A stretch of DNA of 64,000 bases from Candidatus Polarisedimenticolaceae bacterium (GCA_036275915.1 DASUCV010000009.1:223198-287197), one strand, 5' to 3'; counted from the first letter of the stretch, positions 3,001 through 45,826 are shown. Notes: generated from the sequence alone by a model not told the origin. Translations and numbers: made by a program.

Positions 3001-4287
3001 GAGGACAGCCACGCGCGCGGCCCCTGGTGGGAGGTCTACGGCGATCCCGAGCTGAGCACGCTCGAGGCCCAGGTCGACGTCTCGAGCCAGACGATCGCGC
3101 AGGCCGAGGCCGAGTACCGGGGGGCGCGCGCGGCGGCGCGCCTCGCGCACGCAGGCCTGTATCCCACGATCTCCACGAACCCCTCGGTGATCCGCTCGAA
3201 GGGCGTTTCCCGGTCGACGCTCACCGCGTCCTCGTCCCCCACCACGTTCTATGAAGTCCCGGTGGACTTCTCGTGGGAGGCGGATCTCTTCGGCCGCCTG
3301 CGGCGGACCGCCGAGGAGGGCGCCGCGCAGGCGCAGGCCTCGGCCGCCGATCTCGAAGGCGTGCGCCTCGCGATGCACGCGGAACTGGCGGTCGATTACT
3401 TCGAGCTGCGCGGGCTCGATGCCGAGGCGAAGCTCTTCGACACGACGGTCGATGCGTACAACGTCGCGCTCGAGCTGACGAAGAACCGCTACGCCCAGGG
3501 CGTCGCTTCCGGCGTCGACGTCGCGCAGGCCGAGACGCAGCTCGAATCGACGCACGCCCAGGCGACCGACCTTCGCCTCCAGCGCACCCAGCTCGAGCAC
3601 GCGATCGCGGTCCTCATGGGGAAACCGCCCTCCGAGTTCTCGCTTCCACCCGGTCAACCGCTCGCCGAGCCCCCCGGCGTTCCCGTCGGACTACCGTCCG
3701 ACCTCCTCGAGCAGCGCCCCGACGTCGCCGCCGCCGAGCGGCGCGCCGCCGCAGCGAACGCCGCGATCGGCGTCGCCCAGGCGGCGTACTTCCCCTCTCT
3801 GACCCTCAGCGCGTCGGGCGGCTTCGCCAGCTCCGCGCTCGGCGACCTCTTCTCGCTTCCGAGCCGCTTCTGGTCGATCGGCGCGGCCGCGCTCGAGACG
3901 ATCTTCGATGGTGGACGCCGACGCGCGGCCAAGAACCAAGCGATCGCCGGCTACGATGCGTCCGTCGCCGCGTATCGCGAGAGCGTGCTCACCGCGCTGC
4001 AGCAGGTCGAGGACAACCTCGCAGCGCTCCGCGACCTCGAGGTGGAAGCCTCCGAGCAGGCGAAGGCGACCGCCGCCGCGGAGCGCGCGCTCTCCCTGGC
4101 GCAGAACCGCTACAAAGCCGGGATCACGTCGTACCTCGAGGTCGTCGTCGCGCAAGCGGTCGCGCTCGGCGACGAGCGGGCGTCGGTCGATCTGTCGGTG
4201 CGGCGCATGGTGGCGAGCGTCAACCTGGTCCAGGCTCTCGGCGGCGGGTGGAACGCGGAGGAGCTTCGCTCAGGACTCCAGAAATAG
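1..4287 (+). CDS. RND (HAE1, MdtB/MdtC-like) efflux permease, 5'-truncated by the window edge, continuing in frame without a stop into a NodT/OprM-type outer-membrane-factor lipoprotein
   Basis: Frame 1 is open from base 1 (GRIAGITE precedes the first ATG at 25), so the 5' end lies outside the window. The sequence is MdtC-like (SSGSGSTQVTLQFDLSRNIDAAARDVQAAINAA..., multi-TM pattern, ...TTPVVYLYLDRF). From about 2839 the same frame encodes a signal peptide plus lipobox (ALLLTAC) and AVGPDYKRP..., the hallmark N-terminus of NodT-family OMFs, ending ...LVQALGGGW. No stop codon lies between the two parts. Confidence 0.85.
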   Translation, partial: GRIAGITEMTSSSGSGSTQVTLQFDLSRNIDAAARDVQAAINAARGQLPANLPGNPSYKKANPADAPIMLLALTSDTVERARMYDVASTILQQKLAELRGVGQVVVGGGALPAVRVELDPAAVYDSGLALEDVRTALAAANANRPKGDVGDDKRLWSVTTSDQLLKAAEYEPLVISAHGSAAVRLADIARVTDSVEDLHATGLANGKPAIILIIFRQPGANIIETVDRIRGVLPQLRASLPHGVELQVMIDATRTIRASVRDVEITLLIAIGLVVLVVFAFLRSARSTFIPSVAVPISLIGTFGVMYLLGYSIDNLSLMALTVATGFVVDDAIVVVENVTRHLEEGRTPLDAALIGAREIGFTVVSISLSLIAVFIPILFMGGIIGRLFREFAVTLSVAIAVSLVVSLTTTPMMCAMLLRPHGTTRQGRLAAAGERAFDFILRVYGRGLDWVLRHQPLTLAVTLLTMAGTAALYVVVPKGFFPQQDTGRMNGSLVADQDASFQATNKKLSALVATVMKDPAIESAAGFIGGSSNTGRVFVGLKPTSERTATPDQVIARLRGKLSGVPGATLYLQAVQDVRVGGRFGAAQYQYTLQGDDPDELSSWAPRVYAKLRSLPMLADVNTDQQNKGLRASLTIDRATASRLGITTQRIDDTLYDAFGQRQVSTMYTQLNQYHVVMQVDEKLWQNPDGLKSIYIPSTDGGLVPLSAIARFGSGTAPLTVNHQGQFPAITISFNLPVGVALGTAITAIKRAESEIGLPSSIRGSFQGTAKEFQASLANEPILILAALLAVYVVLGILYESLIHPVTILSTLPSAGVGALLALLATNTELSVIALIGIILLIGIVKKNAILMIDFAIEAERSQGKSPEEAIRQACLLRFRPITMTTMAALLGGLPLAIGGGTGSELRRPLGIAIVGGLIFSQMLTLFTTPVVYLYLDRFRLAWGRLRGKAVLRPALFAVLALLLTACAVGPDYKRPPAPTPDAYKELPPGAQTLRPARPEDSHARGPWWEVYGDPELSTLEAQVDVSSQTIAQAEAEYRGARAAARLAHAGLYPTISTNPSVIRSKGVSRSTLTASSSPTTFYEVPVDFSWEADLFGRLRRTAEEGAAQAQASAADLEGVRLAMHAELAVDYFELRGLDAEAKLFDTTVDAYNVALELTKNRYAQGVASGVDVAQAETQLESTHAQATDLRLQRTQLEHAIAVLMGKPPSEFSLPPGQPLAEPPGVPVGLPSDLLEQRPDVAAAERRAAAANAAIGVAQAAYFPSLTLSASGGFASSALGDLFSLPSRFWSIGAAALETIFDGGRRRAAKNQAIAGYDASVAAYRESVLTALQQVEDNLAALRDLEVEASEQAKATAAAERALSLAQNRYKAGITSYLEVVVAQAVALGDERASVDLSVRRMVASVNLVQALGGGWNAEELRSGLQK
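2839..2904 (+). other. Internal lipoprotein signal peptide and lipobox at the RND/OMF junction
   Basis: Codons 2839-2904 read L-RGKAVLRPALFAVLALLLTAC: a basic n-region, a hydrophobic core, and the lipobox L-T-A-C with the Cys codon at 2902-2904. The only conceivable in-frame initiators nearby are CTG 2839 and GTG 2878. Confidence 0.7.
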
Positions 4288-5529
4288 CTCCCCGCTCGCC
4301 GGATCGTACGAGAACAGCTCCGCGTAGCGCCCCCAGTTGATGACGTTCTCCAGCTCCTCATCGGCGTGCTCGCCGTACTCGTCCTTGAATCGGTCGAGGA
4401 AGTAGCCGCGGTCGATGCGCTGGTTGTCGTCCTGCTGAAGCGCCTCGTAGATCTTGTTCACGACCGGGATCCGCAGCACGCGTCCCGCGATCAGCTCCTT
4501 GCGCGCGAGGATGCTCGCCTCGGCGTAGGCGGAACCCAGCGGTGCGAGCGAGAGGTCGCCCTCGGCGACCGTGAGCATGCCGAGCAGCTCGCCGAGTTCG
4601 ACGACGGGGAGGACGTCGTCGATCTCGAGGGTCAGCTCGGCGGCGAGGCGGTACAGGTCCGCGCGTCCGCCCTCGGCGGCGAGCTTCTCGACGAGACCGG
4701 CGAGCGCGTTCGGGCGTGCCTTCGGCAGGCGCCGTCCCGCCTGGCGGACCTCGCCCTCGGGCCTCGTCTTGCCCGCGACCGCCGCGTAGACGGTGTCGAC
4801 GATCGCCTGGAACGCCGTGTCCTTGCGCCGGCGTGGGTGGCGCAGCGTCACCGGGATCTCGACCACGACCCGTCCGGGGTCCTTCCCCATGACGACGATG
4901 CGGTCGGCCATGAGCACCGCCTCCTCGATGTTGTGGGTCACCATGAGGATCGCCTTCGTCGGGATGGCGTGCGACGACCACAGCTCGAGCAGCTCGCCGC
5001 GGAGCGCCTCGGCCGAGAGCACGTCGAGCGCCGAGAACGGCTCGTCGAGGCAGAGCAGCTCCGGCTCGACCGCCATCGCGCGCGCGAAGCCGACCTTCTG
5101 CCGCATCCCACCCGACAGCTCTCGGGGGTACGCCGCCTCGAAGCCGTCGAGCCCGACCATGTCGATGAGCTTGCGGGCGCGCTCCTCGCGCTCGGGGCGC
5201 GGGATGCCGCGGGCGCGGAGGGCGACCTCGACGTTCTCCTGCACGGTGAGCCACGGGTAGAGGGCGAAGGTCTGGAAGACGATCGTCGCGTGCGGGTTCA
5301 CGCCCTCGACCGGGACGCCGCGGTAGCGCACCTGCCCCTCGGTCGCGGGGCTGAGACCGGTGATCACGCGCAGGAGCGACGACTTGCCGCAGCCCGACGG
5401 GCCCAGGAGGCACACGAACTGTCCCGCATCGACCTCGAGCGAGACTCCGGAGACGGCGACGAAGAGCTTGGGGGGACGCCCGTACGTCTTCGTCACCCGG
5501 TCCACGTTGAGAAGCGCTTCTCCGCTCAT
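4270..5529 (-). CDS. ABC transporter ATP-binding protein (NitT/TauT-like) with a roughly 160-aa C-terminal extension (AAA-associated C-terminal domain type)
   Basis: Walker A GPSGCGKSS, Q-loop, signature LSGGMRQKV, Walker B LLCLDEPFSALD and H-loop VTHN are present. An extra C-terminal domain follows (...LYRLAAELTLEIDDVLPVVELGELLGML...). The 3' end overlaps the convergent RND-OMF gene by 18 bp. Confidence 0.9.
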   Translation of the reverse strand: MSGEALLNVDRVTKTYGRPPKLFVAVSGVSLEVDAGQFVCLLGPSGCGKSSLLRVITGLSPATEGQVRYRGVPVEGVNPHATIVFQTFALYPWLTVQENVEVALRARGIPRPEREERARKLIDMVGLDGFEAAYPRELSGGMRQKVGFARAMAVEPELLCLDEPFSALDVLSAEALRGELLELWSSHAIPTKAILMVTHNIEEAVLMADRIVVMGKDPGRVVVEIPVTLRHPRRRKDTAFQAIVDTVYAAVAGKTRPEGEVRQAGRRLPKARPNALAGLVEKLAAEGGRADLYRLAAELTLEIDDVLPVVELGELLGMLTVAEGDLSLAPLGSAYAEASILARKELIAGRVLRIPVVNKIYEALQQDDNQRIDRGYFLDRFKDEYGEHADEELENVINWGRYAELFSYDPASGELFLES

Positions 5530-5539
5530 GGCGTCTCCA

Positions 5540-7243
5540 TCATTCCATGCGGTAGCGCTCTTCCGCGAGCCGGTAGAGCCGCGCCCAGAACACCCGGTTG
5601 ATCAGGACCACGGTGCCGACGAGCGCCAGGGTGCCCGCGAGGAGCATCGCGTAGTTCGCGTCGGCCGTCGCGGCCGCGATCGTCGCGCCGACGCCGACGG
5701 TCTGGTGCGTCTCGCCGCCGAACTCCACGAACTCGGCGACGATGCTGGCGTTCCACGCGCCGCCCGAGGCGGTGATCGCTCCGGTGATGACGAACGGGAA
5801 GAGCGAAGGGAGGACGAGCGTGCGCCATCGCGCCGCGCGCGTGAGACGCAGGAGATCGGTCGTGTCGCGGAGGTCCCGCGGAATCGCCGAGGCTCCCGCG
5901 ATCACGTTGAAGAGCAGATACCACTGCGTCCCCATGAGCATGAGCAGAACCGCCGCCAGGTTGAGGCCGAACGGAAGGCGGAGCAGCACGATGAGGATCA
6001 CGGGGAAGAGCGCCGTCGCGGGGACCGCCGCCAAGACCTGCGCCGCCGGCTGGAGCACCCGCGCGAGCCGCGGCCTCGTCCCGATCACGTAGCCGACAGG
6101 GAGCGTCCAGGCGACGGCGATCAGGAGCGACGCGGCCACGCGCGCGAAGGTCGCGAGGAGGCCCGCGCCGATCGTCTCCCACGAGGCGAGCGACAGCGAG
6201 GCGAGGAGCGACGCGGCACGGACGGCGCCGTAGAGGACGATCGCGACGAGGACGGCCCCCGCGACCCACGCGGGCCATCGAGATTCCTCGCGCCGGGCTC
6301 TGGGCTTCGCGTCCACGGCGAGCGAGGCGCGATCCATCCGATCCCCGAGCGGCGCGATCACGCGCGTCCGGATCTCCGCGGCGAGCCGCGAGCCGTCGAG
6401 GGCGTCGCGGAACCACGACGTCTGCGGCTGCTCGCCCTCCACCGACTCGATCTTGAACTTCGTCGCCCAGGCGAGGAGCGGCCGCCACACGACCTGATCG
6501 AGGACGACGACGATGGCGACGAGCGTGACGACGCCGAGCAGCACCGCGCGAAGATCTCCCGTCGACGCCGCGGTCTGAAGGTACGAGCCGAGCCCGGGCA
6601 GGCGGAAGTCGTGCGACCCGACCTTGAAGATCTCCGACGCCATGAGGAAGAACCAGCCGCCGGCCCAGCTCATCACACTGTTCCAGATGAGGCCGATCGC
6701 GGCGAACGGCAGCTCGAGGACGCGCAGGCGCATCCACGGCGAGAGCCGGAAGATCGAGGCCGCCTCGCGGAGCTCGCTCGGGATCGTCGTGAGCGACTGG
6801 TAGAAGGAGAACGTCAGGTTCCAGGCCTGCGAGGTGAAGATGAGAACGATCGCCGCGACCTCCGCCGCCGCGCGCTGCGGGAGCACGGCGGAGAGTCCGA
6901 GGAGGACGACCGGGAGGAACGAGAGGATCGGCACGCTCTGGAGGACGTCGAGGAGCGGCATCAGGACCTTGCGCGCTCCGGGGTTCCTCGCCGCGGCGTA
7001 GCCGTAGGCCAGGCTGAACCCGAGCGACAGCGCGTAGGCGGCGGCCATCCGGCTCACCGAGAGGAGCGCGTACCACGGGAGCGCACCCGGCGACGTCGAG
7101 ATCTCCGGCCCCGCGATCGCCGTCGGCGCGAAGAAGGCGAGGCGGACGCCCGCATAGAGCAGCGCAGCGATCCCCGCGAAGATGAGGACGTCGGCGAGCG
7201 CCGGCCGCCGCGGAAGTACCGGTCCGAAACGCAGTCGCCTCAC
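5540..7243 (-). CDS. ABC transporter permease with duplicated transmembrane domains (NitT/TauT-type, 567 aa)
   Basis: The polytopic hydrophobic sequence contains two BPD-type permease halves (two EAA-like loops: ...ELREAASIFRLSPW... and ...DLRDTTDLLRLT...). It starts at GTG and overlaps the hemerythrin stop (GTGA). It lies 10 bp upstream of the ATPase gene. Confidence 0.8.
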   Translation of the reverse strand: MRRLRFGPVLPRRPALADVLIFAGIAALLYAGVRLAFFAPTAIAGPEISTSPGALPWYALLSVSRMAAAYALSLGFSLAYGYAAARNPGARKVLMPLLDVLQSVPILSFLPVVLLGLSAVLPQRAAAEVAAIVLIFTSQAWNLTFSFYQSLTTIPSELREAASIFRLSPWMRLRVLELPFAAIGLIWNSVMSWAGGWFFLMASEIFKVGSHDFRLPGLGSYLQTAASTGDLRAVLLGVVTLVAIVVVLDQVVWRPLLAWATKFKIESVEGEQPQTSWFRDALDGSRLAAEIRTRVIAPLGDRMDRASLAVDAKPRARREESRWPAWVAGAVLVAIVLYGAVRAASLLASLSLASWETIGAGLLATFARVAASLLIAVAWTLPVGYVIGTRPRLARVLQPAAQVLAAVPATALFPVILIVLLRLPFGLNLAAVLLMLMGTQWYLLFNVIAGASAIPRDLRDTTDLLRLTRAARWRTLVLPSLFPFVITGAITASGGAWNASIVAEFVEFGGETHQTVGVGATIAAATADANYAMLLAGTLALVGTVVLINRVFWARLYRLAEERYRME

Positions 7244-37855: not shown

Positions 37856-38584
37856 TCAGGAGCCGGGCTCGTAGACGCGGCGAACGGAGACCGTGCGCGA
37901 GCCCTTCGGTATCTTGAGCGTGCGCGTGACCTGAAGGAGCGGTTTCCCATCGTCCAAGGGAACGAGGGTGTAGGTCTCCTCGAACGTCTCGCCCGACCCG
38001 AGCGTCGTGGCTTCGTGGAGCTTCTCGCCGTCCCACTGGATCTGGGATTGCGCGGTGGTCCCGAATCGATCGTCGAGATGCGGCTTGCCGTCCGCCTGCC
38101 AATTCGTCATGCGCCCGCCGGTCTCGACGATCTGGAACATGCTCTCGTGCTGCGCGACGACGATGCTCTCCGGCATCTCTCGCATGAGCGACATCGCCGC
38201 CTCGATCACGGCACGATCGGGCTCGGCGCCGCGCGAGCCCGACGAGCTCCTGCCGCCGGAGCCCCCGTGGCCACCGCCGCCACCCCATCCACCTCCGCCG
38301 ACGCCGCCGCCGTGGCCGCCGTGACCTCCGTGGCCACCGCCGTATCCGCCGCCACCGCCACCTTCGCCGCCTTGCTCGTTCTCGACTTGCGGGGTATGTG
38401 CCGCCGGCAACGTCGCCTCGGGGTCATCGCTGAGCTTCGTGTTGAGCGTCCAGCTTCCGGCGAACGGGCAAGGAGCGACTGCCGTTGGTGGGGTGAGGTT
38501 GGCCGAAACGACCGTGGTCCCGTCGGCTTGCGCGGAGGAGAGGACGCAGACGGCGAACGCGCTGCCGACGATCCATCTCAGCAT
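37856..38584 (-). CDS. Secreted hypothetical protein with a Gly/His-rich low-complexity segment
   Basis: Signal peptide MLRWIVGSAFAVCVLSSAQA. Residues 71-119 read QGGEGGGGGGYGGGHGGHGGHGGGVGGGGWGGGGGHGGSGGRSSSGSRG (nt 38228-38374). A structured C-terminal domain of about 120 aa follows. Confidence 0.65.
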   Translation of the reverse strand: MLRWIVGSAFAVCVLSSAQADGTTVVSANLTPPTAVAPCPFAGSWTLNTKLSDDPEATLPAAHTPQVENEQGGEGGGGGGYGGGHGGHGGHGGGVGGGGWGGGGGHGGSGGRSSSGSRGAEPDRAVIEAAMSLMREMPESIVVAQHESMFQIVETGGRMTNWQADGKPHLDDRFGTTAQSQIQWDGEKLHEATTLGSGETFEETYTLVPLDDGKPLLQVTRTLKIPKGSRTVSVRRVYEPGS

Positions 38585-38644: not shown

Positions 38645-40411
38645 CTACGAACCGGGCGCGAGCTCCGGAGCCCGGTAGATCTCCTGACCGTCGAGGAGTG
38701 TCAAGAGAACGCGCGTGCGCCCGATCTCGTTCGGAGGAATCGCGAAGAGGTCGTGCTCGAGAACGACGAGATCGGCGGCCTTCCCTGCCTCGATCGTGCC
38801 GGTCTCCTTCTCGCGGAAGTCGATCCACGCGCCGCGACGCGTGTAGCCCTCGAGCATCGACTCGAGACTCACGCGCTCTTCGGGGATGAACGAGGACACG
38901 GTCGCGGCGTCGGGATCGCTGCGCGTCACGCCGACCTGGATCGCCGGGAGCGGATCGACGGTGGTCACCGCCCAGTCGCTGCCGAAGACGACGGCGGCGC
39001 CGGAGCGCGTGACGCTCCCGATGGGATAGATCCAGCGCGAGCGCTCGGGGCCGAGGATGGGAAGGGTGAGGTTCGTGATGTACGGATCCGCGAAAGCCCA
39101 CAGCGCCTGGAAGTTCGCGACGACGCCGAGCTTCGCGAAGCGCGGGATGTCCGCCGGGTCGATCAGCTCGAGGTGCGCGATCTGGTGGCGTGCGTCGCGC
39201 ACGCCGTTCTTCGCCTGCGCGCGCTCGAACGCATCGAGCGTCATGCGCACGGCGCGGTCGCCGATCGCGTGGACGTGCACCTGGAAGTGCGCCCGATCGA
39301 GCGCCTCGACCAGATCGTTCAGCGCGTCGGGCGTGTAGCGCGGGAGTCCACGCGCGCCGGTCGGGTCGCCGAGATAGGGCTCGAGGAGCGCCGCGGTGCG
39401 CGATTCGATGACGCCGTCGGCAAAAATCTTCGCGGAGCTCGCGGTCAGGCGTGGACCGCGCGTTCGGGCGCGAAGCGCCTCGAGCTTCGCAACTTGCCCC
39501 GGTCCCGCCTCCGGGTCGGTCTCGAGAGCGACGGAAACCTTCGCGGTCAGCTCGCCGGCGTCGGAGAGCTTCTGGTAGATCCCGAGGATTCCCTCGCTCG
39601 CATCCGCCTCGGTGAACGACGTGATGCCGTGGCTCGCCATCTCGTGCAGCGCGCGGCGAAAGCCTTCGGCGACCTCGGCGAGCGGCGTCGGGGGAAGGTG
39701 CTCCTCCACGAGGCCGGCCGCCGATTCACGCAAGGTTCCCGTCGGCTCTCCGGTCTTGGGGTCGCGCTCGATCCGGCCGTCCTGAGGATCGGGCGTGTCG
39801 CGCGTGACTCCGGCGATCGCGAGCGCCGCGGTGTTCACCCAGGCCGAGTGGCCGTCGGACGATGCGATGAGGGCCGGCCGGTCGCCGACGATGGCGTCGA
39901 GATCTTGCCGCCGCGGCCCTTCGGGGAAAACCGGGAGTTGCCAGCCACGGCCGCGAAACCAGTTCTTCTTCGGGTCGGCGCCGGCGGGGATCGGATGATC
40001 GTGCGCGCAGCGACGGAGCGTCTCGAAAGCCGCCTCCGGCGTCGCGCACTGCGCGAGATCGCACCAGCTCAGCTGGACGCCGGCCTCGACGGGGTGCACG
40101 TGCGCATCGTGGAAGCCGGGGAGCAGCATGCGGCCGGCGAGCGAGACGACGCGCGTCGAGGGGCCGATCCAGCGCCTCGCTTCGCCGTTGTCCCCGACGA
40201 AGACGATGCGGCCGCCCAACACCGCGACCGCCTCCGCGCGTGGCCGCGCGGGATCGGCCGTATAGATCGTCCCGCCACGGAAGAGCAGATCGGCGGCATC
40301 ATGAGTCGCGATCTGTGTCGAGGCACCGTCGCGGCGGGAAACGCCAGGCCCGGTGCAGGAGGCGAGCAGGACGAGGACCGTCGTCGAGGCGAGCCGTCGA
40401 GCGAGCTGCAT
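38645..40411 (-). CDS. Amidohydrolase-family metallohydrolase (Amidohydro_3 / YtcJ-like) lipoprotein
   Basis: Lipobox VLLASCTG. Metal-binding motif PGFHDAHVHPVEAG, later HVHAIGDRA, and AVVFGSDW near the C-terminus. Confidence 0.85.
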   Translation of the reverse strand: MQLARRLASTTVLVLLASCTGPGVSRRDGASTQIATHDAADLLFRGGTIYTADPARPRAEAVAVLGGRIVFVGDNGEARRWIGPSTRVVSLAGRMLLPGFHDAHVHPVEAGVQLSWCDLAQCATPEAAFETLRRCAHDHPIPAGADPKKNWFRGRGWQLPVFPEGPRRQDLDAIVGDRPALIASSDGHSAWVNTAALAIAGVTRDTPDPQDGRIERDPKTGEPTGTLRESAAGLVEEHLPPTPLAEVAEGFRRALHEMASHGITSFTEADASEGILGIYQKLSDAGELTAKVSVALETDPEAGPGQVAKLEALRARTRGPRLTASSAKIFADGVIESRTAALLEPYLGDPTGARGLPRYTPDALNDLVEALDRAHFQVHVHAIGDRAVRMTLDAFERAQAKNGVRDARHQIAHLELIDPADIPRFAKLGVVANFQALWAFADPYITNLTLPILGPERSRWIYPIGSVTRSGAAVVFGSDWAVTTVDPLPAIQVGVTRSDPDAATVSSFIPEERVSLESMLEGYTRRGAWIDFREKETGTIEAGKAADLVVLEHDLFAIPPNEIGRTRVLLTLLDGQEIYRAPELAPGS

Positions 40412-40435: not shown

Positions 40436-42469
40436 CTACCTCGTCACCGTCGCCCAGAACGGCAGGTACCTCTTCGCGTCCTTCACGCCTTGCTCGGTGA
40501 CGAGAGTCCCCGTCACGTTGAGCTTCGTCAGCTTCGAGACCTGCTTCAGGTGGACGAGGCCGGCGTCGGTCACCTTCGTCCCCGAGACGTTGAGGCCGGC
40601 GAGGCCCGGAAGCCGGCTCACCTGGGCGAGACCGGCGTCGGTGATGCCGTCGTTCGACAGATTGATCGACTCGAGCCGTGACAGACCCGCGAGGTGCACG
40701 AGACCCGCGTCGGTCACCTTGGTGTCCGCGAGGTTGAGGGTCGTGAGGCCCGAGAGCGTCCCGAGGTGGACGAGGCCGTCGTCGGTGATCGCCGTCCCCT
40801 TGAGACCGAGATACTCGAGCGACGTGAGCTCTCCCAGGCGTGCGAGGCCGCCGTCGGTGATCTTGGTCCCCGAGAGGTTCAGGACACGCAGAGCCGGTAG
40901 GGTCTTCATGACCTCGAGCGCTGCGTCGCCGGTCGATGCTCCCATGAGGCCGAGGCCGTGGAGGTTGGGCAAGCCCTCGAGCGCACGGACGTCCTCGTCG
41001 GTCACGGCCGCGTTGCCGAGGCTCAACTCTTCGAGATCGCGAAGCCGGGCCAGCATCGGGATCACCATCGCGAGGTTCGTCGCCTTGTCCAGCCCCACGC
41101 CGACGATGCGCGAACCTTGGCGCTTGACGGTGCCTCCGGCGGCCTCGATCGCCGCCTGCGGCGTACCCGGCGCCGGCGCGCTCGCGCTCTCGGGCTTGCC
41201 TCCCGTCGGCGGAAGCCGGAACTCCACGTAGTCCGAACGGACCGGGCGCACGAGGCGCTCATCGCCGGGATAGGGCTCGTCCCTGAGGTAGTAGCTCACA
41301 CGAACCCGGCGGTCCTCCGGGTAATAGAAGGCGTGCCAGAACGTGCGCATCGGCGGACGGGAGGGATCCGCCGCCTGCGACATCTGCGCATCGACGTTCT
41401 GATGGAAGCCGCGGATCGTCTCGTCGTCGAGCCTTCCGGCGGCCAGCTTTTCCGTGAGGTACGCGTAGCGCTTGCACGTCGACCTCGCCTTCTCCGCCGA
41501 AGGAGGCTTGCCGTCCTCGAGCTGCTTGTGAAGGGTGAAGTTCGTCATGACGAGCGGCTGGCCCGGGTTCTCGACGATGTACTCCTTGTTGTGGACCTCG
41601 GAGTACTCCCACACGAACGCGTTGCCGTTGCGGTCGGCGATCAGGTAGTGCACCGGGACGTACTGGTAGTACTGCTTCGTCGCCTGGAGCGCCTGCTTCG
41701 CTTCGTCGACCGTGGCGCAGGTATCGAGGAGCAAGCGCAACGTCTGGAGCTCGCTCACCCCGACCGCGGGCTCCCGCGTCGGCTCCGTCTTCGCGTGGCT
41801 GAAGATCTCGTCGTCCATCGCCAGCGTGACGGTGAGCCCTTCGGAGTTGATGCCGTCGAGCACCCCGCTCAAGAGATCGTAGGCGACCATCGCGATCGAG
41901 GCGTATCCGCGATCGGGATGCAGCTCGAGGAGGTACGGCCGCGCCGTCGGATGCAGCATGCCGGGCGGAAGGAAGCCGAAGCTGAGCGCGCCGGTCGTGA
42001 AGTCGTAGTCGCGGCTCACGACGCTCTTGCCGTTCGCGGTCGATGCGGGCGGCAGATGCGCGATGGAGCATCCGGCGCGCAGATCGGTGTATCCGAGGCT
42101 CGTGAAGTCCCAGCCGTCGTCGTCGATCGACTTGCCGAACGCCGCGGCGACGCCCCGCATCCGCTCGAGCAGGATGGGATCGTTCCGCTCGAGGAACTTG
42201 CGCATCGCGCGCGCTTGCACGGGATCCTTGGCGGCCGGGAGTCGCACGCCGTAGCGTTCCTTCCCGAGCTCCGCGAGGGCGCGGCCGATCTGCTCGTTCG
42301 TCCCCCGCAGGACGAGGTGGCGCACTTCGAGGGAGTCGCTCGGTCCGCCGGCGATGACACGATCCTCCTCGATCACGCTCCCCGACGTGGCGGGAGACGA
42401 GCAGCCGTGGAGGCCCGCGAGCAGGACGAAACCGAGGCACGGGATCGCTTCCGCGAGGCGGCGAACCAT
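40436..42469 (-). CDS. Lipoprotein combining an Ntn-hydrolase domain (peptidase C45 / acyl-CoA:6-APA acyltransferase-like) with eight C-terminal 24-aa leucine-rich repeats
   Basis: Lipobox LAGLHGC. A Gly-Cys self-processing-type site ...DLRAG|CSIAHL (Cys134), followed by ...RDYDF..., ...GINSEGLTVTL..., ...YLIADRNGNAFVWEY.... The C-terminus has 8 copies of LxxLxLxGTxVTDAGLxHLxxLxx (residues 479-670). Confidence 0.7.
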   Translation of the reverse strand: MVRRLAEAIPCLGFVLLAGLHGCSSPATSGSVIEEDRVIAGGPSDSLEVRHLVLRGTNEQIGRALAELGKERYGVRLPAAKDPVQARAMRKFLERNDPILLERMRGVAAAFGKSIDDDGWDFTSLGYTDLRAGCSIAHLPPASTANGKSVVSRDYDFTTGALSFGFLPPGMLHPTARPYLLELHPDRGYASIAMVAYDLLSGVLDGINSEGLTVTLAMDDEIFSHAKTEPTREPAVGVSELQTLRLLLDTCATVDEAKQALQATKQYYQYVPVHYLIADRNGNAFVWEYSEVHNKEYIVENPGQPLVMTNFTLHKQLEDGKPPSAEKARSTCKRYAYLTEKLAAGRLDDETIRGFHQNVDAQMSQAADPSRPPMRTFWHAFYYPEDRRVRVSYYLRDEPYPGDERLVRPVRSDYVEFRLPPTGGKPESASAPAPGTPQAAIEAAGGTVKRQGSRIVGVGLDKATNLAMVIPMLARLRDLEELSLGNAAVTDEDVRALEGLPNLHGLGLMGASTGDAALEVMKTLPALRVLNLSGTKITDGGLARLGELTSLEYLGLKGTAITDDGLVHLGTLSGLTTLNLADTKVTDAGLVHLAGLSRLESINLSNDGITDAGLAQVSRLPGLAGLNVSGTKVTDAGLVHLKQVSKLTKLNVTGTLVTEQGVKDAKRYLPFWATVTR
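40460..41035 (-). repeat. Eight tandem 72-bp coding repeats (24-aa LRR units)
   Basis: Units: LEELSLGNAAVTDEDVRALEGLPN / LHGLGLMGASTGDAALEVMKTLPA / LRVLNLSGTKITDGGLARLGELTS / LEYLGLKGTAITDDGLVHLGTLSG / LTTLNLADTKVTDAGLVHLAGLSR / LESINLSNDGITDAGLAQVSRLPG / LAGLNVSGTKVTDAGLVHLKQVSK / LTKLNVTGTLVTEQGVKDAKRYLP. Confidence 0.85.
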
Positions 42470-42492
42470 GGATGCACCTCCTACTTGCTTTT

Positions 42493-42525
42493 TGACCCTA
42501 GGTCAGTATCATAACCAGTGGTTAT
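42493..42525. promoter_or_regulatory. Two inverted repeats (candidate TetR operators) in the 48-bp divergent intergenic region
   Basis: IR1 is TGACC-CTA-GGTCA at 42493-42505. IR2 is ATAACCA-G-TGGTTAT at 42511-42525, with perfect 7-bp arms, and covers both candidate start codons of the TetR gene (GTG 42518, ATG 42524). Confidence 0.45.
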
Positions 42526-43123
42526 GACACGTCAAGCGGAAATTCGCTCCCCCCGCGAGCGCTACCGGGACCAGCTCCGGCGCGACATCCTCGACGCCGC
42601 CCGCGAGGCGTTCGCTCAGGACGGCTACGAGGGGGTCTCGATGCGCAAGCTCGCCGAGAAGATCGGCTGCTCGCACGCCAACCTCTACCTGCACTTCAAG
42701 GACAAGGAGGCTCTCTTCGAGAGTCTGGTCGAGGAGAGCTTCGACCGGTTCGCCGACGGCCTCCGCAAGCAGATCGAATCGGCGAAGGGCGGCGATCCGG
42801 TCACCTTGCTGCGGAAGGCAGGACGCGCCTACGTGGAGTTCGGCGTCGCGAACCCCGGCGTCTACGAGTTCGCGTTCCTCATGCGCCGGCAAGGCGTGAG
42901 CAAGCCTCACGTCAGCTACGAACGCCTGCGATCGCTCGTGCAGCGCTGCGTCGACGAGAAGCGATTCCGCCATGCGAACGTCGATGCCGCGAGCCAGGCG
43001 TTATGGGCAGCCGGCCACGGGATCGCATCGCTTCTGATCCTTCGACCCACGTTCGCCTGGTCCGATCGGCGGAAGCTGATCGGCCAAGTGATCGACTCGG
43101 CGGTGGACGGCCTCCTGGCCTGA
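42518..43123 (+). CDS. TetR/AcrR family transcriptional regulator
   Basis: N-terminal HTH ...ILDAAREAFAQDGYEGVSMRKLAEKIGCSHANLYLHFKDKEALF.... 201 aa from GTG 42518, or 199 aa from ATG 42524. Confidence 0.85.
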   Translation: MVMTRQAEIRSPRERYRDQLRRDILDAAREAFAQDGYEGVSMRKLAEKIGCSHANLYLHFKDKEALFESLVEESFDRFADGLRKQIESAKGGDPVTLLRKAGRAYVEFGVANPGVYEFAFLMRRQGVSKPHVSYERLRSLVQRCVDEKRFRHANVDAASQALWAAGHGIASLLILRPTFAWSDRRKLIGQVIDSAVDGLLA

Positions 43124-43124
43124 C

Positions 43125-43841
43125 TCAGCCGTGAATCTTCACCTTGCCCACGACGCTCTGGAGGACGATCGCCGGCCCGCCCGACCCGAGGATGGCGCGG
43201 TAATCGGCCTCTCCGGCCTCGACGAGACGAAGCCCCGGGACATCGCTCTCGACATGGCCTGCCACGCTGTGCGCCTCGAGCTGTGCGTCGGTCGACGGAG
43301 TGACCTCGAGATCGATGCCGCCGGTGACGCTGCTGACGCGGATCCCGCGGTCGCCGATGCCGGCGACGCTGAGCTCGAGACCGCCGGCGATGGAGCTCAT
43401 CCGCGCCTCACGCACGCCCGCCAGCTCGACTCGGCCCGCGATGCTCTCGAGCTTCAGCATGCCGTCTGTGGCGCCGACGCGAAGCGAGCCGGCGATCGTT
43501 CTCAGGCTCAAGTCGGCGCTGCGCGGCACGGTCAGCTTGACCTGCTGCGATCCGCGGACGTTGTCGCACTTGCTCTCGGTACGGATTTCGACCTTGGTCG
43601 GTGACGGCTCGATCACGACCGCGCCACACGCGAGGTCCTCCTTCGTCGGCGCCGAGCGGACGATGTCGACGTCGACCTTGCCGTCCCCACCGATCGCGAT
43701 CTCGACCGGCCCGGCGATCCGCGAGACGTCGACGGTGCCCCCGTCGGCCAGATCGAAAGTCTTGGAGATGTGCTCTTGCTCCGTCGCGGCGGCGGGGAGT
43801 GCCAGAAGCGCGGCGAGAATCAACGACCCGGTGTGCCTCAT
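43125..43841 (-). CDS. DUF4097-type beta-strand-repeat exported protein (putative adhesin-like fold)
   Basis: Signal peptide MRHTGSLILAALLALPAAA. Repeated units of the form ...IAGSLRVGATDGMLKLESIAGRVELAG...SSIAGGLELSV...SSVTGGIDLEV...HSVAGHVESDV.... SD GAGGAGG lies upstream. Confidence 0.7.
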   Translation of the reverse strand: MRHTGSLILAALLALPAAATEQEHISKTFDLADGGTVDVSRIAGPVEIAIGGDGKVDVDIVRSAPTKEDLACGAVVIEPSPTKVEIRTESKCDNVRGSQQVKLTVPRSADLSLRTIAGSLRVGATDGMLKLESIAGRVELAGVREARMSSIAGGLELSVAGIGDRGIRVSSVTGGIDLEVTPSTDAQLEAHSVAGHVESDVPGLRLVEAGEADYRAILGSGGPAIVLQSVVGKVKIHG

Positions 43842-44530: not shown

Positions 44531-45826
44531 TCAGCTGAGCCCGTTCTTTGATACGGTCGTCATGACGTCCACGAACCGGTCCAGCTCCTCGGGCGTCGTG
44601 TACACGTTCGGGGTGACGCGGAGGCCCTGGAACTCGTCGTGGATGATCGGGACGACGAAGATCTTGTGCTGGTCCATGAGGTGGCTCGCGAGCTTGCTCG
44701 TGTCCACGCCGTCGATCTTCACGTTGGCGATCGCGCAGGACTGCTTGCCGTCCAGTGCGGTGTTGAACCGAACGTTCGGCAGCGCCTGGAGTCTTTCCGC
44801 CCAGGAGTGGGTGAGATAGCGGAGGCGCGCTTCCTTCCGCGCGGCGCCGATGCCGTTGTGGAAGAGGATCGCCTCGCCGATGGCGAGCTTCATGGCGGCC
44901 GAATGCGTGCCGATCTCTTCGTATTTCCGGATGTCGCCGGCTTGCGTCTGATCGGCCGCCATGAGCGGCCAGATCTTGGCGATCTTGTCCTTCTTGACGT
45001 ACAGCAGGCCGGTGCCGATCGGGGCGCCGAGCCACTTGTGAAGACTCGTCCCGAAGTAGTCGCAGCCGAGGTCGGCGCGCTTGAAATCGAAGTGCGCGAA
45101 CGAGTGCGCTCCGTCGACGATCGTCTCGATCCCCTTCGCGCGCGCCATGTCGCAGACCGCCTTGACCGGCGTGATCTGCCCGGTGATGTTGATGACGTGC
45201 GAGATGAGGATCAGCTTCGTCCGCGGGGTGATCCCCGCCTCGAACGCCTCGGCGATCTTCATCGGGTCGGCCGGCGCGATCGGCACCTTGATCAGCTTCA
45301 GCGAGAGCTTCTCGCGCTGCTCGCGCTGCCGGAGCGTCGTGAGCATCCGCGGATAATCCTGCGTCGTCGTGAGGATCTCGTCCCCCGCCTTGAAGTCCAT
45401 CCCCATGAGCAGGGTCTCGAGCGACTCCGAGGCGTTGCGCGTGATCGCGATCTCTTCCCGGTCGCAGCCGAAGATTCCGGCGAGCCCGGTCCTGACGCTC
45501 TCGCACTGGGGCTCGAGGATCTGCCACATCGTGTACGCCGGGAGATCCTCTTGCTGCCAGGTGTAGCGCGCGAACGCTTCGGTGACGATGCGCGGCGACG
45601 GGCTGACGCCGCCGTTGTTCAGGTTGACGATCCCGCGCGTGACCGTGTACGCCTGCTGAACCGTGAGCCAGTAGTCTTCGTCGGCGGCCGCCTGCGCGGG
45701 AGTCAGGTGGGCGATGCTCGCCGCGGCGGCACGCACGTCGTCGAGGAGACCGCTCACCGTCGCCGAGGCCAGCGCGGCGAGGCCGACGCCCCGGCCGGCC
45801 TGAGCGAGAAAGTCGCGGCGATCCAT
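44531..45826 (-). CDS. Aminotransferase class V-fold PLP enzyme (isopenicillin-N-epimerase / cysteine-desulfurase-like) with a twin-arginine signal peptide
   Basis: ATG 45826-45824 gives MDRRDFLAQAGRGVGLAALASATVSG (Tat motif RRDFL). Class V motifs are ...ITRNASESLE..., ...IVDGAHSFAH..., and the PLP-lysine context FGTSLHKWLGAP. Confidence 0.85.
   Translation of the reverse strand: MDRRDFLAQAGRGVGLAALASATVSGLLDDVRAAAASIAHLTPAQAAADEDYWLTVQQAYTVTRGIVNLNNGGVSPSPRIVTEAFARYTWQQEDLPAYTMWQILEPQCESVRTGLAGIFGCDREEIAITRNASESLETLLMGMDFKAGDEILTTTQDYPRMLTTLRQREQREKLSLKLIKVPIAPADPMKIAEAFEAGITPRTKLILISHVINITGQITPVKAVCDMARAKGIETIVDGAHSFAHFDFKRADLGCDYFGTSLHKWLGAPIGTGLLYVKKDKIAKIWPLMAADQTQAGDIRKYEEIGTHSAAMKLAIGEAILFHNGIGAARKEARLRYLTHSWAERLQALPNVRFNTALDGKQSCAIANVKIDGVDTSKLASHLMDQHKIFVVPIIHDEFQGLRVTPNVYTTPEELDRFVDVMTTVSKNGLS

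Follow-up and report, generated by a model that had tools for sequence, protein, structure and literature searches.

Acyl-CoA:isopenicillin N acyltransferase (IAT/AAT), encoded by penDE of Penicillium chrysogenum, belongs to MEROPS family C45 and has a Cys-Ntn fold (structures 2x1c/2x1d/2x1e). The enzyme is peroxisomal and uses acyl-CoA. Its precursor has ~100-110 residues before a Gly-Cys site, and the alpha and beta subunits are 11 kDa and 29 kDa (PMC2692852). The C59 choloylglycine hydrolases (bile salt hydrolases, BSH, and penicillin V acylases, PVA; for example, 4wl2 and Bacillus sphaericus 3pva) share the clan and fold, but their nucleophilic Cys, which follows Met, a short propeptide or the signal peptide, is at, or next to, the mature N-terminus and there is no 110-residue alpha chain. 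Leucine-rich repeats (LRRs) of the FBXL, GALA and RNI kinds are found in cytosolic eukaryotic adaptors or host-injected effectors. The GALA repeat has a period of 24 residues, while the ribonuclease-inhibitor subtype alternates repeats of 28 and 29. In the TetR/TetA paradigm, regulator and target genes diverge from a short intergenic region, where two palindromic operators cover the promoter of the target as well as the start of the regulator gene; the target is an efflux pump. Here, we compare these systems with a locus in a 64-kb stretch of Candidatus Polarisedimenticolaceae DNA (the window). Our reading, which we think likely to be correct, is that the locus encodes a Sec-exported, self-cleaving C45 hydrolase, joined to an independent LRR binding module, and controlled by a TetR switch that is relieved by ligand.

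An ORF of 677 codons, on the minus strand at 40436-42469, was recovered exactly as first called. A public protein (P0001) is identical over its full length and is named 'C45 family autoproteolytic acyltransferase/hydrolase [Candidatus Polarisedimenticolaceae]'. The layout is confirmed as a signal peptide, a C45 Cys-Ntn proenzyme domain, a Pro/Ala-rich linker and eight LRRs. The gene and its parts, from the 5' end, are:

42477..42482, minus strand: ribosome-binding site AGGAGG, 7 nt 5' of the C45-LRR ATG
40436..42469, minus strand: complete C45-LRR coding sequence, 677 aa plus stop (ORF call and identical public protein)
42401..42469, minus strand: signal peptide, residues 1-23, containing a lipobox-like LHGC in which Cys23 is putatively lipidated
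42071..42400, minus strand: predicted alpha chain (pro-region), residues 24-133, 11.9 kDa
42068..42070, minus strand: codon of Cys134, the invariant, predicted N-terminal nucleophile, exposed by self-cleavage at Gly133/Cys134
41198..42070, minus strand: catalytic beta-chain core, residues 134-424, 32.8 kDa (profile matches, invariant columns and Foldseek)
41162..41197, minus strand: Pro/Ala/Gly-rich flexible linker, residues 425-436; pLDDT <50 for 423-434
41060..41161, minus strand: N-terminal LRR cap, residues 437-470; helix plus beta-hairpin, conserved AAGGTVKRxGxRVV, pLDDT ~87-90
40484..41059, minus strand: eight 24-residue LRRs, residues 471-662 (register, Pfam and pLDDT >90)
40439..40483, minus strand: C-terminal cap, residues 663-677 (KDAKRYLPFWATVTR); L669 and P670 invariant

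Long, overlapping and spurious ORFs occur in the region (e.g. 40958-42514, plus strand, and 41259-42440, minus strand). Logically, the fusion might then be an artefact of annotation or assembly, or a chance ORF in a genome of 68-70% G+C. We give this explanation almost no credence. The identical public protein is on a 432-kb contig, both halves have significant profile matches, the parts yield confident structure models, and a ribosome-binding site and promoter are correctly placed. Most directly, more than 100 full-length orthologues, from independent assemblies, have the same architecture; together with their alignment, these refute an artefact.

The orthologues are 55-86% identical and come almost entirely from Polarisedimenticolia and Thermoanaerobaculia. 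The family appears to be restricted to a few Acidobacteriota lineages. Apparent matches without LRRs proved to be truncated or frameshifted. The original prediction would have been undermined had the LRR part been a separate gene in orthologues. Since enzyme and repeats form a single gene in more than 100 of them, this challenge fails, and stable fusion is established. The C45-LRR family is real and conserved, yet uncharacterised. Our literature search found no characterised member, no characterised bacterial C45 enzyme, and no characterised example of an Ntn hydrolase combined with LRRs; the original prediction knew of no such combination either. Outside the clade, relatives of the catalytic domain are standalone, and no accessory module other than the LRR is recognisable anywhere in the catalytic subfamily. 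These standalone 'C45 family peptidases' (~375-440 aa; for example P0123 and P0127, from Gemmataceae and Chthonomonadaceae) are equally uncharacterised. They are 30-57% identical throughout the catalytic domain and its C-terminal beta-hairpin extension, and many have signal peptides. Unlike the C45-LRR proteins, they lack the LRR domain and, in the three contexts examined, an adjacent TetR gene.

An Ntn-hydrolase domain is present as originally proposed. Its catalytic part ends at about residue 424, and thus occupies roughly 400 residues after the signal peptide, rather than ~440. The prediction had asked for a choice between C45 and C59, and profile scores favour the former. NCBIfam model NF040521 (C45_proenzyme) matches residues 55-389 over its entire length (1-313 of 313), scoring 116.8 bits against a cutoff of 85. 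Pfam AAT (PF03417) scores 56.6 bits (cutoff 23.2; 3.8e-15). Pfam CBAH (PF02275) also passes, at 27.1 bits (cutoff 20.4), but is far weaker than AAT, and NCBIfam bile_salt_hydro (NF038245) reaches just 18.9 bits against a cutoff of 350. The catalytic domain was modelled with a mean pLDDT of 90.6 and a pTM of 0.91. When this model was compared with solved structures, using Foldseek, the top 7 matches were IAT entries 2x1c/2x1d/2x1e, in precursor and mature forms (E 9e-15 to 1.6e-12, TM 0.51-0.60), consistent with an alpha-beta-beta-alpha Ntn fold closest to that of IAT. BSH and PVA structures formed a second tier (E ~1e-10). Note that the IAT match is distant, with a TM of ~0.55 and 14-16% identity. 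Furthermore, IAT lacks the C-terminal linker and eight-repeat domain. Conversely, a sequence profile matched only C59 enzymes in the PDB, aligning over the DG(V/I)N(E/S)(K/E)GL and (V)MTN blocks. The closest chain was 4wl2, the exported Pectobacterium penicillin V acylase, at E 1e-7 and with partial coverage. The C59 enzymes also lack LRRs. The family lies near the C45/C59 boundary. Subunit sizes help to place it: 110 residues separate the signal peptide from Cys134, and the predicted alpha chain and beta core (11.9 and 32.8 kDa) resemble the 11-kDa alpha and 29-kDa beta subunits of IAT (PMC2692852). Assignment to C45, rather than C59, is supported by the HMM cutoffs, the alpha chain and the fold ranking.

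The active site is well conserved. The predicted Gly-Cys site is present, as DLRAG/CSIAHL, and A132, C134 and S135 are invariant among 25 aligned orthologues. The residue before the nucleophile is Gly in 95 of 120 orthologues and Ala in 20 (115 of 120 together). The DGCTT motif of IAT corresponds to (R/K/H)A(G/A)CS here. Blocks SRDYD (152-156), LHPTARPY (172-179), DGxNSEG (205-211) and MTNF (308-311) are also invariant in the 25-orthologue alignment, where the two further blocks noted originally, GINSEGLTV (206-214) and YLIADRNGNAFVWEY (275-289), were found and are largely invariant. In a 60-sequence alignment that includes standalone relatives, the Cys, an R-x-x-D pair and T-N are still invariant. 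The structure model places Cys134 on a central beta-strand (133-139), after the sole low-confidence loop of the domain. Domain identities, and conservation of the nucleophile and Ntn motifs, are therefore established.

We turned to the location of the protein. The N-terminus, MVRRLAEAIPCLGFVLLAGLHGC, contains the LAGLHGC string noted originally, with Cys23 as its last residue. The lipobox consensus is [LVI][ASTVI][GAS]C. Hence, in the L-H-G-C version here, His at -2 is atypical; close orthologues have canonical ATGC, VTGC or AAGC. Every orthologue examined has an N-terminal export signal. A lipobox Cys is present in 54 of 109, while the other 55 carry an AxA-type signal peptide. The protein is probably lipid-anchored, via Cys23, in its own genome, but anchoring seems optional across the family, about half of which has the lipobox. 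The description of a lipoprotein would suit this gene and not the family as a whole.

Export bears on chemistry. IAT is the best fold match and is an acyltransferase, the NCBIfam name covers both 'acyltransferase' and 'hydrolase', and related C59 enzymes are also capable of acyl transfer. The C45-LRR enzyme might therefore use a thioester or amide donor and pass its acyl group to an acceptor amine in the envelope (to remodel a lipid or lipoprotein, for example), rather than hydrolyse its substrate. We consider this improbable. All orthologues have export signals, and acyl-CoA is cytoplasmic and so unavailable outside that compartment. Similarly, no acyl-carrier or ligase gene is conserved near the C45-LRR gene in the loci examined. 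IAT-like, acyl-CoA-dependent transfer by the exported enzyme is unlikely. Given its location outside the cytoplasm, the enzyme most likely acts as a hydrolase (deacylase).

The LRR module was found as described, with eight 24-residue repeats in perfect register at 471-662 (consensus vhLxxLpxLexLNLsGTkvTDaGL). Matches to Pfam LRR_4 (63.1 bits, 2.3e-17), LRR_8 (44.1 bits, 1.7e-11), LRR_14 (40.5 bits) and LRR_6 (37.8 bits) all exceed cutoffs, and the model alternates strand and helix at pLDDT >90. The repeats are old, being 17-54% identical to one another. For residues 445-677, the best structural neighbours are CC/GALA proteins, namely FBXL2 (6o60_C), Legionella LegL1 (4xa9) and Ralstonia RipG4 (9j7j), together with ribonuclease inhibitor (4per/2bex), at 18-27% identity; NLRP3 is another neighbour. 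The original 'RNI-type' label is thus correct at the superfamily level. The strict ribonuclease-inhibitor subtype does not apply, however: since the period is exactly 24 in all eight repeats, the subtype is CC/GALA-like. As in CC/GALA proteins, the second half of each repeat forms a helix. In contrast to those comparators, there is Thr at the ladder position (LxLxGTxVTD), there is no F-box, and the protein is Sec-exported, from a free-living acidobacterium, with the repeats fused to an enzyme.

What might the repeats do? One explanation is that a protein, lipoprotein or lipopeptide is bound on their concave face, so that the N-acyl amide bond of this ligand is presented to Cys134. The enzyme would then be a macromolecule-directed deacylase, not a small-molecule amidase. 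The LRR is always kept within the clade and, as above, is the sole accessory module of the subfamily. In repeats 4 and 6-8, conservation is stronger at concave positions (entropy 0.2-0.5) than at convex ones (0.75-1.2), although the concave positions of repeats 1-3 and 5 are variable. Against this explanation, orthologous linkers differ in length, from a few residues to ~70 (alignment columns 448-510), and repeat number runs from 6 to 9. Such variation speaks against the binding face and the active site being held in a fixed arrangement. Furthermore, standalone relatives at 40-57% identity retain the same catalytic motifs without LRRs, and the whole-protein model leaves the domains undocked, with a pTM of 0.51 and no confident inter-domain geometry. 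Note that, because this arrangement is poorly predicted, the LRR might still contribute directly to the active site. On balance, we regard selection and presentation of a macromolecular substrate by the LRR as a tentative possibility. The initial proposal, that the solenoid selects the target, is an inference, given the flexible and variable linker, the undocked model and a concave face that is conserved only in part. The low-confidence, variable linker, the range of repeat number and the conserved concave positions suggest that the LRR is an independent binding module, and a tethering or partner-binding role would fit at least as well as direct choice of substrate.

Regulation of the C45-LRR gene is suggested by its surroundings. 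The relevant features are:

42524..43123, plus strand: divergent TetR-family gene, TetR_N plus TetR_C_33; counted from the conserved ATG, it encodes 199 aa (GTG 42518 is the start in the ORF list)
42508..42535, minus strand: sigma-70-like promoter of the C45-LRR gene; TTGACG 42535-42530, 16 nt, TATGAT 42513-42508
42506..42530, no strand: predicted operator O1, a 25-bp imperfect palindrome with its centre at 42518 and the core ATAACCAcTGGTTAT at 42511-42525
42493..42505, no strand: predicted operator O2, a perfect palindrome (TGACC-TAG-GGTCA) just 3' of the -10 hexamer, over the expected transcription start
38645..40411, minus strand: downstream gene for an Amidohydro_3 lipoprotein (Pfam 4.9e-106), after a 24-nt gap

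The divergently adjacent TetR gene of the original prediction is real. Its product has PF00440 (3e-17) and PF13305 (1.5e-09) domains. Profile and structure comparisons of the C-terminal domain (TetR_C_33) gave no ligand clue and no informative solved relative. Among the loci fetched, 18 have an orthologue next to the enzyme gene and divergent from it, at enzyme identities as low as 55%, while all other neighbours vary. In all, 383 TetR orthologues were found, several on the same contig as an orthologue of the enzyme. Judged by gene order, the divergent TetR is a conserved partner of the C45-LRR gene, which is new here. In three loci (L001, L002 and L019) its place is taken by genes for an ECF sigma factor and a 113-aa membrane protein, apparently a sigma/anti-sigma pair that replaces TetR. 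The Amidohydro_3 gene, by comparison, was absent from every orthologue locus examined and is outside the conserved module. No terminator was found between it and the C45-LRR gene, and the two are possibly co-transcribed here.

The intergenic region, of ~55 bp, resembles that of the TetR/TetA paradigm, although the target here is an exported Ntn hydrolase. The C45-LRR promoter is the sole promoter-like site between 38400 and 43300, where 0.1 would be expected by chance. Predicted operator O1 has 12-nt arms, 92% complementary, and spans the promoter spacer, the -10 hexamer and the TetR start codon; an equivalent site is conserved in TetR-type loci. The exact sequence TGACCNNNGGTCA occurs once in the window, as O2. 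The composite of O1, -10 hexamer and O2 is found once per locus, and always in the intergenic region, in 11 related loci, with variants elsewhere. The conserved TetR pairing, and the geometry of operators and promoter, are established by these data. Repression by TetR, and its relief by a ligand, would follow the paradigm.

Genes with a dedicated TetR or ECF sigma factor typically respond to xenobiotics or envelope stress. Hence, the enzyme could be an inducible acylase that detoxifies a foreign N-acyl compound or quenches it as a signal (an acyl-homoserine lactone, a penicillin V-type beta-lactam or a lipopeptide antibiotic). The regulator would sense the compound, or envelope stress caused by it, and the only task of the LRR would be to keep the enzyme at the cell surface. 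Consistent with this, the two genes form a module in otherwise unrelated neighbourhoods, and one MAG has two copies (L008 and L018). Moreover, exported 4wl2 is the closest PDB chain by sequence, and one preprint reports AHL-acylase activity for PVAs of this clan (bioRxiv 10.1101/788646). However, the enzyme resembles PVA only weakly, and its fold agrees better with IAT. The conserved module has no efflux or resistance genes in the examined loci, PADLOC gave no matches, and domain and structure comparison ties the TetR to no particular ligand. Overall, we consider a detoxifying or quenching role doubtful.

The best reading of these data is that the C45-LRR product is an inducible amide hydrolase, in the envelope or outside the cell, whose LRR module binds a macromolecular partner. 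By analogy with IAT, the proenzyme would be exported by Sec, fold, and then cleave its own Gly133-Cys134 bond. This would produce a 12-kDa alpha chain, bearing the lipid, and a 59-kDa beta chain, which may stay associated non-covalently. The new N-terminal Cys134 would be the nucleophile, attacking a non-peptide amide (N-acyl) bond. From the beta chain, the flexible Pro/Ala linker would lead to the eight-repeat FBXL/GALA-like solenoid, an independent binding module that may hold the enzyme on, or recruit it to, a partner macromolecule or a carrier of the substrate, in the envelope or outside the cell. A TetR dimer is predicted to bind the two TGACC-N3-GGTCA operators, which overlap the -10 hexamer, the transcription start and the regulator's own start codon. 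Release would be triggered by a small molecule, for which the substrate or a product is a plausible candidate. In a sister lineage, the ECF sigma/anti-sigma pair may fill this role. A bolder version combines these elements: the surface-tethered deacylase would be induced by its substrate, with the LRR capturing a target that is a macromolecule or an amphiphile (a lipopeptide or lipoprotein of foreign origin, or a carrier-bound acylated signal) and delivering its N-acyl bond to Cys134, while TetR, or the ECF system, reports the target. We think this version unlikely as it stands.

Environmental genomes encode many bacterial C45 Ntn hydrolases, and we found none with a known substrate. One subfamily, in a single acidobacterial clade, has gained both a protein-binding solenoid and a private transcriptional switch, which provides two experimental handles absent from standalone relatives. 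The effector of TetR could reveal the inducing molecule, probably the substrate or product, and the LRR is usable as bait for the partner. If the enzyme is a plain amidase with a tether, this would be a routine domain fusion. Conversely, if the solenoid captures the target of a deacylase, an Ntn hydrolase would for the first time have been shown to recognise its target through a repeat solenoid, and no bacterial C45 enzyme would have been assigned a function earlier. Should signals, antibiotics or lipoproteins be deacylated at the cell surface, this would be a new way of targeting Ntn hydrolases, and would give insight into interactions between little-known Acidobacteriota of soil and sediment and the organisms around them.

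The open reading frame for the C45-type hydrolase fused to leucine-rich repeats (C45-LRR) is where the original prediction placed it, at 40436-42469 on the minus strand, and encodes 677 aa. An AGGAGG ribosome-binding site is 7 nt 5' of the ATG. A public protein, on a 432-kb contig, matches the product over its full length with 100% identity (P0001; 'C45 family autoproteolytic acyltransferase/hydrolase [Candidatus Polarisedimenticolaceae]'). All sequence strings quoted previously were found: LAGLHGC (Cys23), DLRAG/CSIAHL (Cys134 after the slash), GINSEGLTV and YLIADRNGNAFVWEY. The accompanying lipoprotein claim holds in part. The window protein does have LHGC with Cys23, but the His at -2 is atypical. 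Furthermore, all orthologues are equipped with an export signal at the N-terminus, yet a lipobox Cys is found in only 54 of 109; the signal peptides of the others are of the AxA type. Hence, lipid anchoring is optional across the family.

Whether the catalytic domain belongs to family C45 or C59 (bile-salt hydrolases and penicillin V acylases) was to be checked. The NCBIfam model C45_proenzyme scored 116.8 bits, against a cutoff of 85, and was covered completely by residues 55-389. Pfam AAT scored 56.6 bits, versus 27.1 bits for CBAH, the C59 family. Residues 24-424 were modelled with AlphaFold from 60 aligned sequences, distant standalone relatives among them, giving a mean pLDDT of 90.6 and a pTM of 0.91. 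The top seven PDB matches to this model were all Penicillium chrysogenum isopenicillin-N acyltransferase (IAT), a C45 enzyme, in precursor and mature forms (E values 9e-15 to 1.6e-12, TM 0.51-0.60, identity 14-16%). Both kinds of C59 enzyme ranked after these (E ~1e-10). Note that C59 enzymes were the sole matches in a sequence-profile search of the PDB, aligned across the DG(V/I)N..GL and MTN blocks. Within the Cys-Ntn clan, the family is therefore close to where C45 and C59 meet. It is the overall architecture that decides for C45. Self-cleavage of IAT at Gly102-Cys103 generates alpha and beta chains of 11 and 29 kDa (PMC2692852). Likewise, 110 residues (11.9 kDa) separate the signal peptide from Cys134, and the catalytic core that follows is 32.8 kDa. 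Membership of C59 fails on both nucleophile position and equivalog score. We conclude that profile scores, the IAT-first fold ranking and the alpha-segment architecture all point to C45, as does every feature testable in silico.

The active site is strongly conserved. In 25 full-length orthologues (57-83% identity) A132, C134, S135, S152-R153-D154-Y155-D156, LHPTARPY, DGxNSEG and MTNF are invariant. The Cys, the R-x-x-D pair and T-N stay invariant in an alignment widened to standalone relatives with as little as 37% identity. Of the best 120 among 597 matches, 95 have Gly immediately before the Cys and 20 have Ala. In the domain model, a central beta-strand carries Cys134 and follows the one loop of low confidence. 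This predicted placement is the geometry expected for an Ntn precursor.

Eight 24-residue repeats, in perfect register, were confirmed at residues 471-662 (consensus vhLxxLpxLexLNLsGTkvTDaGL), and Pfam LRR_4, LRR_8, LRR_6 and LRR_14 all score above their cutoffs. Identity among the repeats is 17-54% (amino acid) and 38-71% (nucleotide), which rules out recent expansion; the repeats are old. The nearest structures to this half of the protein are FBXL2, the GALA-type LRRs of LegL1 and RipG4, ribonuclease inhibitor and NLRs. Hence, the earlier 'RNI-type' label is right at the superfamily level, while the strict 24-residue period makes the subtype CC/GALA-like. In a full-length AlphaFold model, using 25 orthologues, the LRR solenoid has pLDDT >90 and the catalytic domain is moderate. 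The arrangement of the two is not predicted with confidence (pTM 0.51). The number of repeats varies between orthologues: six in P0041, seven in 17 proteins, eight in 49 and nine in P0112 and P0114. Similarly, the length of the Pro/Ala-rich linker varies, from a few residues to ~70. Since both are variable, and the linker flexible, the LRR is best seen as an independent binding module, outside the catalytic pocket. Conservation is higher at the concave positions in repeats 4 and 6-8, and in the C-terminal cap, than on the convex face. Computed on fairly close orthologues, this lends modest support to a conserved LRR partner. The same cassette was absent from other proteins across the 318 kb searched.

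The prediction that both halves form one gene was borne out. A word-indexed search gave 597 matches, of which the best 120 are mostly 640-730 aa, with AAT and LRR domains, and 56-86% identical. Two entries among these, P0109 and P0111, list PF03417 alone. Both reach the LRR region before a frameshift or contig end, and so are not LRR-less orthologues. A scan of one genome per species (185,579 species) identified 15 C45-LRR loci, in Polarisedimenticolia, Thermoanaerobaculia and unclassified Acidobacteriota, plus a few bins labelled Planctomycetota, Krumholzibacteriia and Angelobacter. Note that these labels derive from metagenome-assembled genome (MAG) bins. Loci L009, L012, L014 and L016, with orthologues at 55-71% identity, come from bins assigned to Planctomycetota, Krumholzibacteriia, Angelobacter and Planctomycetaceae. 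Such outlying labels may reflect mis-binned acidobacterial contigs or lateral transfer of a two-gene module. Searched exhaustively with HMMER, the catalytic domain by itself matched 739 representatives (50% clustering), 200 of which were below 1e-30. Only one full-length representative, P0121 (690 aa), has the length of the LRR fusion. The rest are standalone, ~375-440 aa and 30-57% identical; their source names, in Gemmataceae and Chthonomonadaceae, give only 'C45 family peptidase'. No accessory module was recognisable in the longer relatives P0199, P0232, P0212 and P0267. Because catalytic-domain relatives elsewhere are standalone, and lack recognisable modules, the LRR is a derived addition in a single clade.

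The TetR gene reported to adjoin C45-LRR is a consistent partner. An orthologous regulator (TetR_N and TetR_C_33 domains) is divergently upstream in the window and at 18 of the fetched loci, some of them in Thermoanaerobaculia with enzyme identity as low as 55%. All other neighbours change between loci, even at 76-81% enzyme identity. We found 383 TetR orthologues; the best 120 of the 383 are 70-83% identical and several share contigs with enzyme orthologues. One genome, MAG M3-S_metawrap_bin.237, has two paralogous TetR/C45-LRR modules on separate contigs (L008 and L018). The TetR gave no clue to its ligand: NCBIfam and PDB matches were driven by the DNA-binding domain, and the homology search returned close orthologues only. 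The spacer between the two genes is ~55 bp, and the region contains the following.

42535-42508: sigma-70-like promoter, TTGACG-16-TATGAT, the sole one in 4.9 kb (0.1 expected by chance)
centre 42518: O1, a candidate operator palindrome spanning the promoter spacer, -10 hexamer and TetR ATG
42505-42493: O2, a candidate operator palindrome (TGACCTAGGGTCA) spanning the expected transcription start

The sequence TGACCNNNGGTCA has a single exact occurrence, at O2, in the 64-kb window. The composite O1/-10/O2 pattern occurs once per locus, always intergenic, at 11 related loci, with variants elsewhere. As read from the DNA, this candidate layout is the classical geometry of repression and autoregulation.

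Three loci lack the TetR and have an ECF sigma factor with a 113-aa membrane protein in its place.

L001, 5580-7000: ECF sigma, 113-aa membrane protein and DUF6249 gene
L002, 5593-6992: ECF sigma, 113-aa membrane protein and DUF6249 gene
L019, 3551-4950: ECF sigma, 113-aa membrane protein and DUF6249 gene

In each case the sigma and 113-aa pair is co-directional with the enzyme gene, 8-17 nt upstream, and a divergent DUF6249 gene is alongside. The 113-aa protein has a single membrane pass and no Pfam family; its gene overlaps the sigma gene by 4 nt. From its position, it would be an anti-sigma factor. The L019 enzyme gene, from a long-read MAG, is broken over four reading frames (4737-6965), likely due to sequencing frameshifts rather than pseudogene formation. 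With the TetR and ECF versions alike, the enzyme would be conditionally expressed. No TetR or ECF-type regulator adjoined standalone relatives at the three loci examined.

Other genes in the window were considered as functional context.

25-4287, plus strand: 1420-aa mechanical ORF, AcrB-type RND transporter (988 bits) then outer-membrane efflux domain
37856-38584, minus strand: 242-aa ORF, signal-peptide-like N-terminus, Gly/His-rich tract of ~50 residues (GGEGGGGGGYGGGHGGHGGHGGGVGGGGWGGGGGHGGSGG)
38645-40411, minus strand: Amidohydro_3 protein (4.9e-106), lipobox-like LLASC, 24 nt past the C45-LRR stop
43125-43841, minus strand: exported DUF4097/LiaG-like ('toastrack') protein, weak matches
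44531-45826, minus strand: class-V PLP enzyme, twin-arginine-like N-terminus MDRRDFLAQAG, best NCBIfam match PvdN

No terminator was found between C45-LRR and the Amidohydro_3 gene, and the two may be co-transcribed in the window. A conserved operon was rejected, since the Amidohydro_3 gene is absent near every orthologue examined, even at 76-81% identity. The PvdN-like, Tat-exported PLP enzyme, 2 kb away, raised the idea of siderophore or secondary-metabolite maturation, by analogy with PvdQ/PvdN. However, it scores 148 bits to PvdN, a periplasmic pyoverdine-tailoring protein, far under the cutoff of 650, and is thus outside that family. Furthermore, this neighbour is not conserved, and the large ORFs of the window cover efflux, kinases, permease and S9 peptidase, with no NRPS or siderophore genes among them. 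We rejected this context also. The DUF4097/LiaG-like gene is convergent with TetR, ends 2 nt past its stop and is not conserved beside orthologues. The 242-aa ORF had no match in Pfam or NCBIfam, and PADLOC found no anti-phage defence match for the enzyme, TetR or neighbours. The 1420-aa ORF probably joins two neighbouring genes that the ORF list reads as one; the AcrB-type match covers profile positions 78-1021, the N-terminus being lost at the window edge.

With domain identities, conserved catalytic motifs, a stable fusion, export signals, TetR pairing and operator/promoter geometry established, we infer autoprocessing, chemistry, LRR role and ligand-dependent derepression as follows. TetR would keep the C45-LRR promoter shut until some small molecule appears. 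The protein would be exported by Sec and, in the window's genome, probably lipidated at Cys23. Once folded, it would self-cleave between Gly133 and Cys134. The lipid would remain on a 12-kDa alpha chain, with the 59-kDa beta chain (core, linker and LRR) held non-covalently, as in IAT. Cys134 would act as the nucleophile, attacking an N-acyl amide bond. Acyl-CoA is absent outside the cytoplasm. Hydrolysis is therefore favoured over transfer of the IAT type.

Our searches of the literature for bacterial C45 enzymes, PF03417 and this architecture returned no paper on the fusion or on a characterised bacterial C45. A JGI entry already names the architecture ('Acyl-coenzyme A:6-aminopenicillanic acid acyl-transferase/Leucine Rich repeat'). 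What the analysis describes is an LRR-fused C45 hydrolase, confined to one clade, with a TetR or ECF switch of its own. Its domain assignments are routine; the conserved regulator and binding module make function approachable by experiment.
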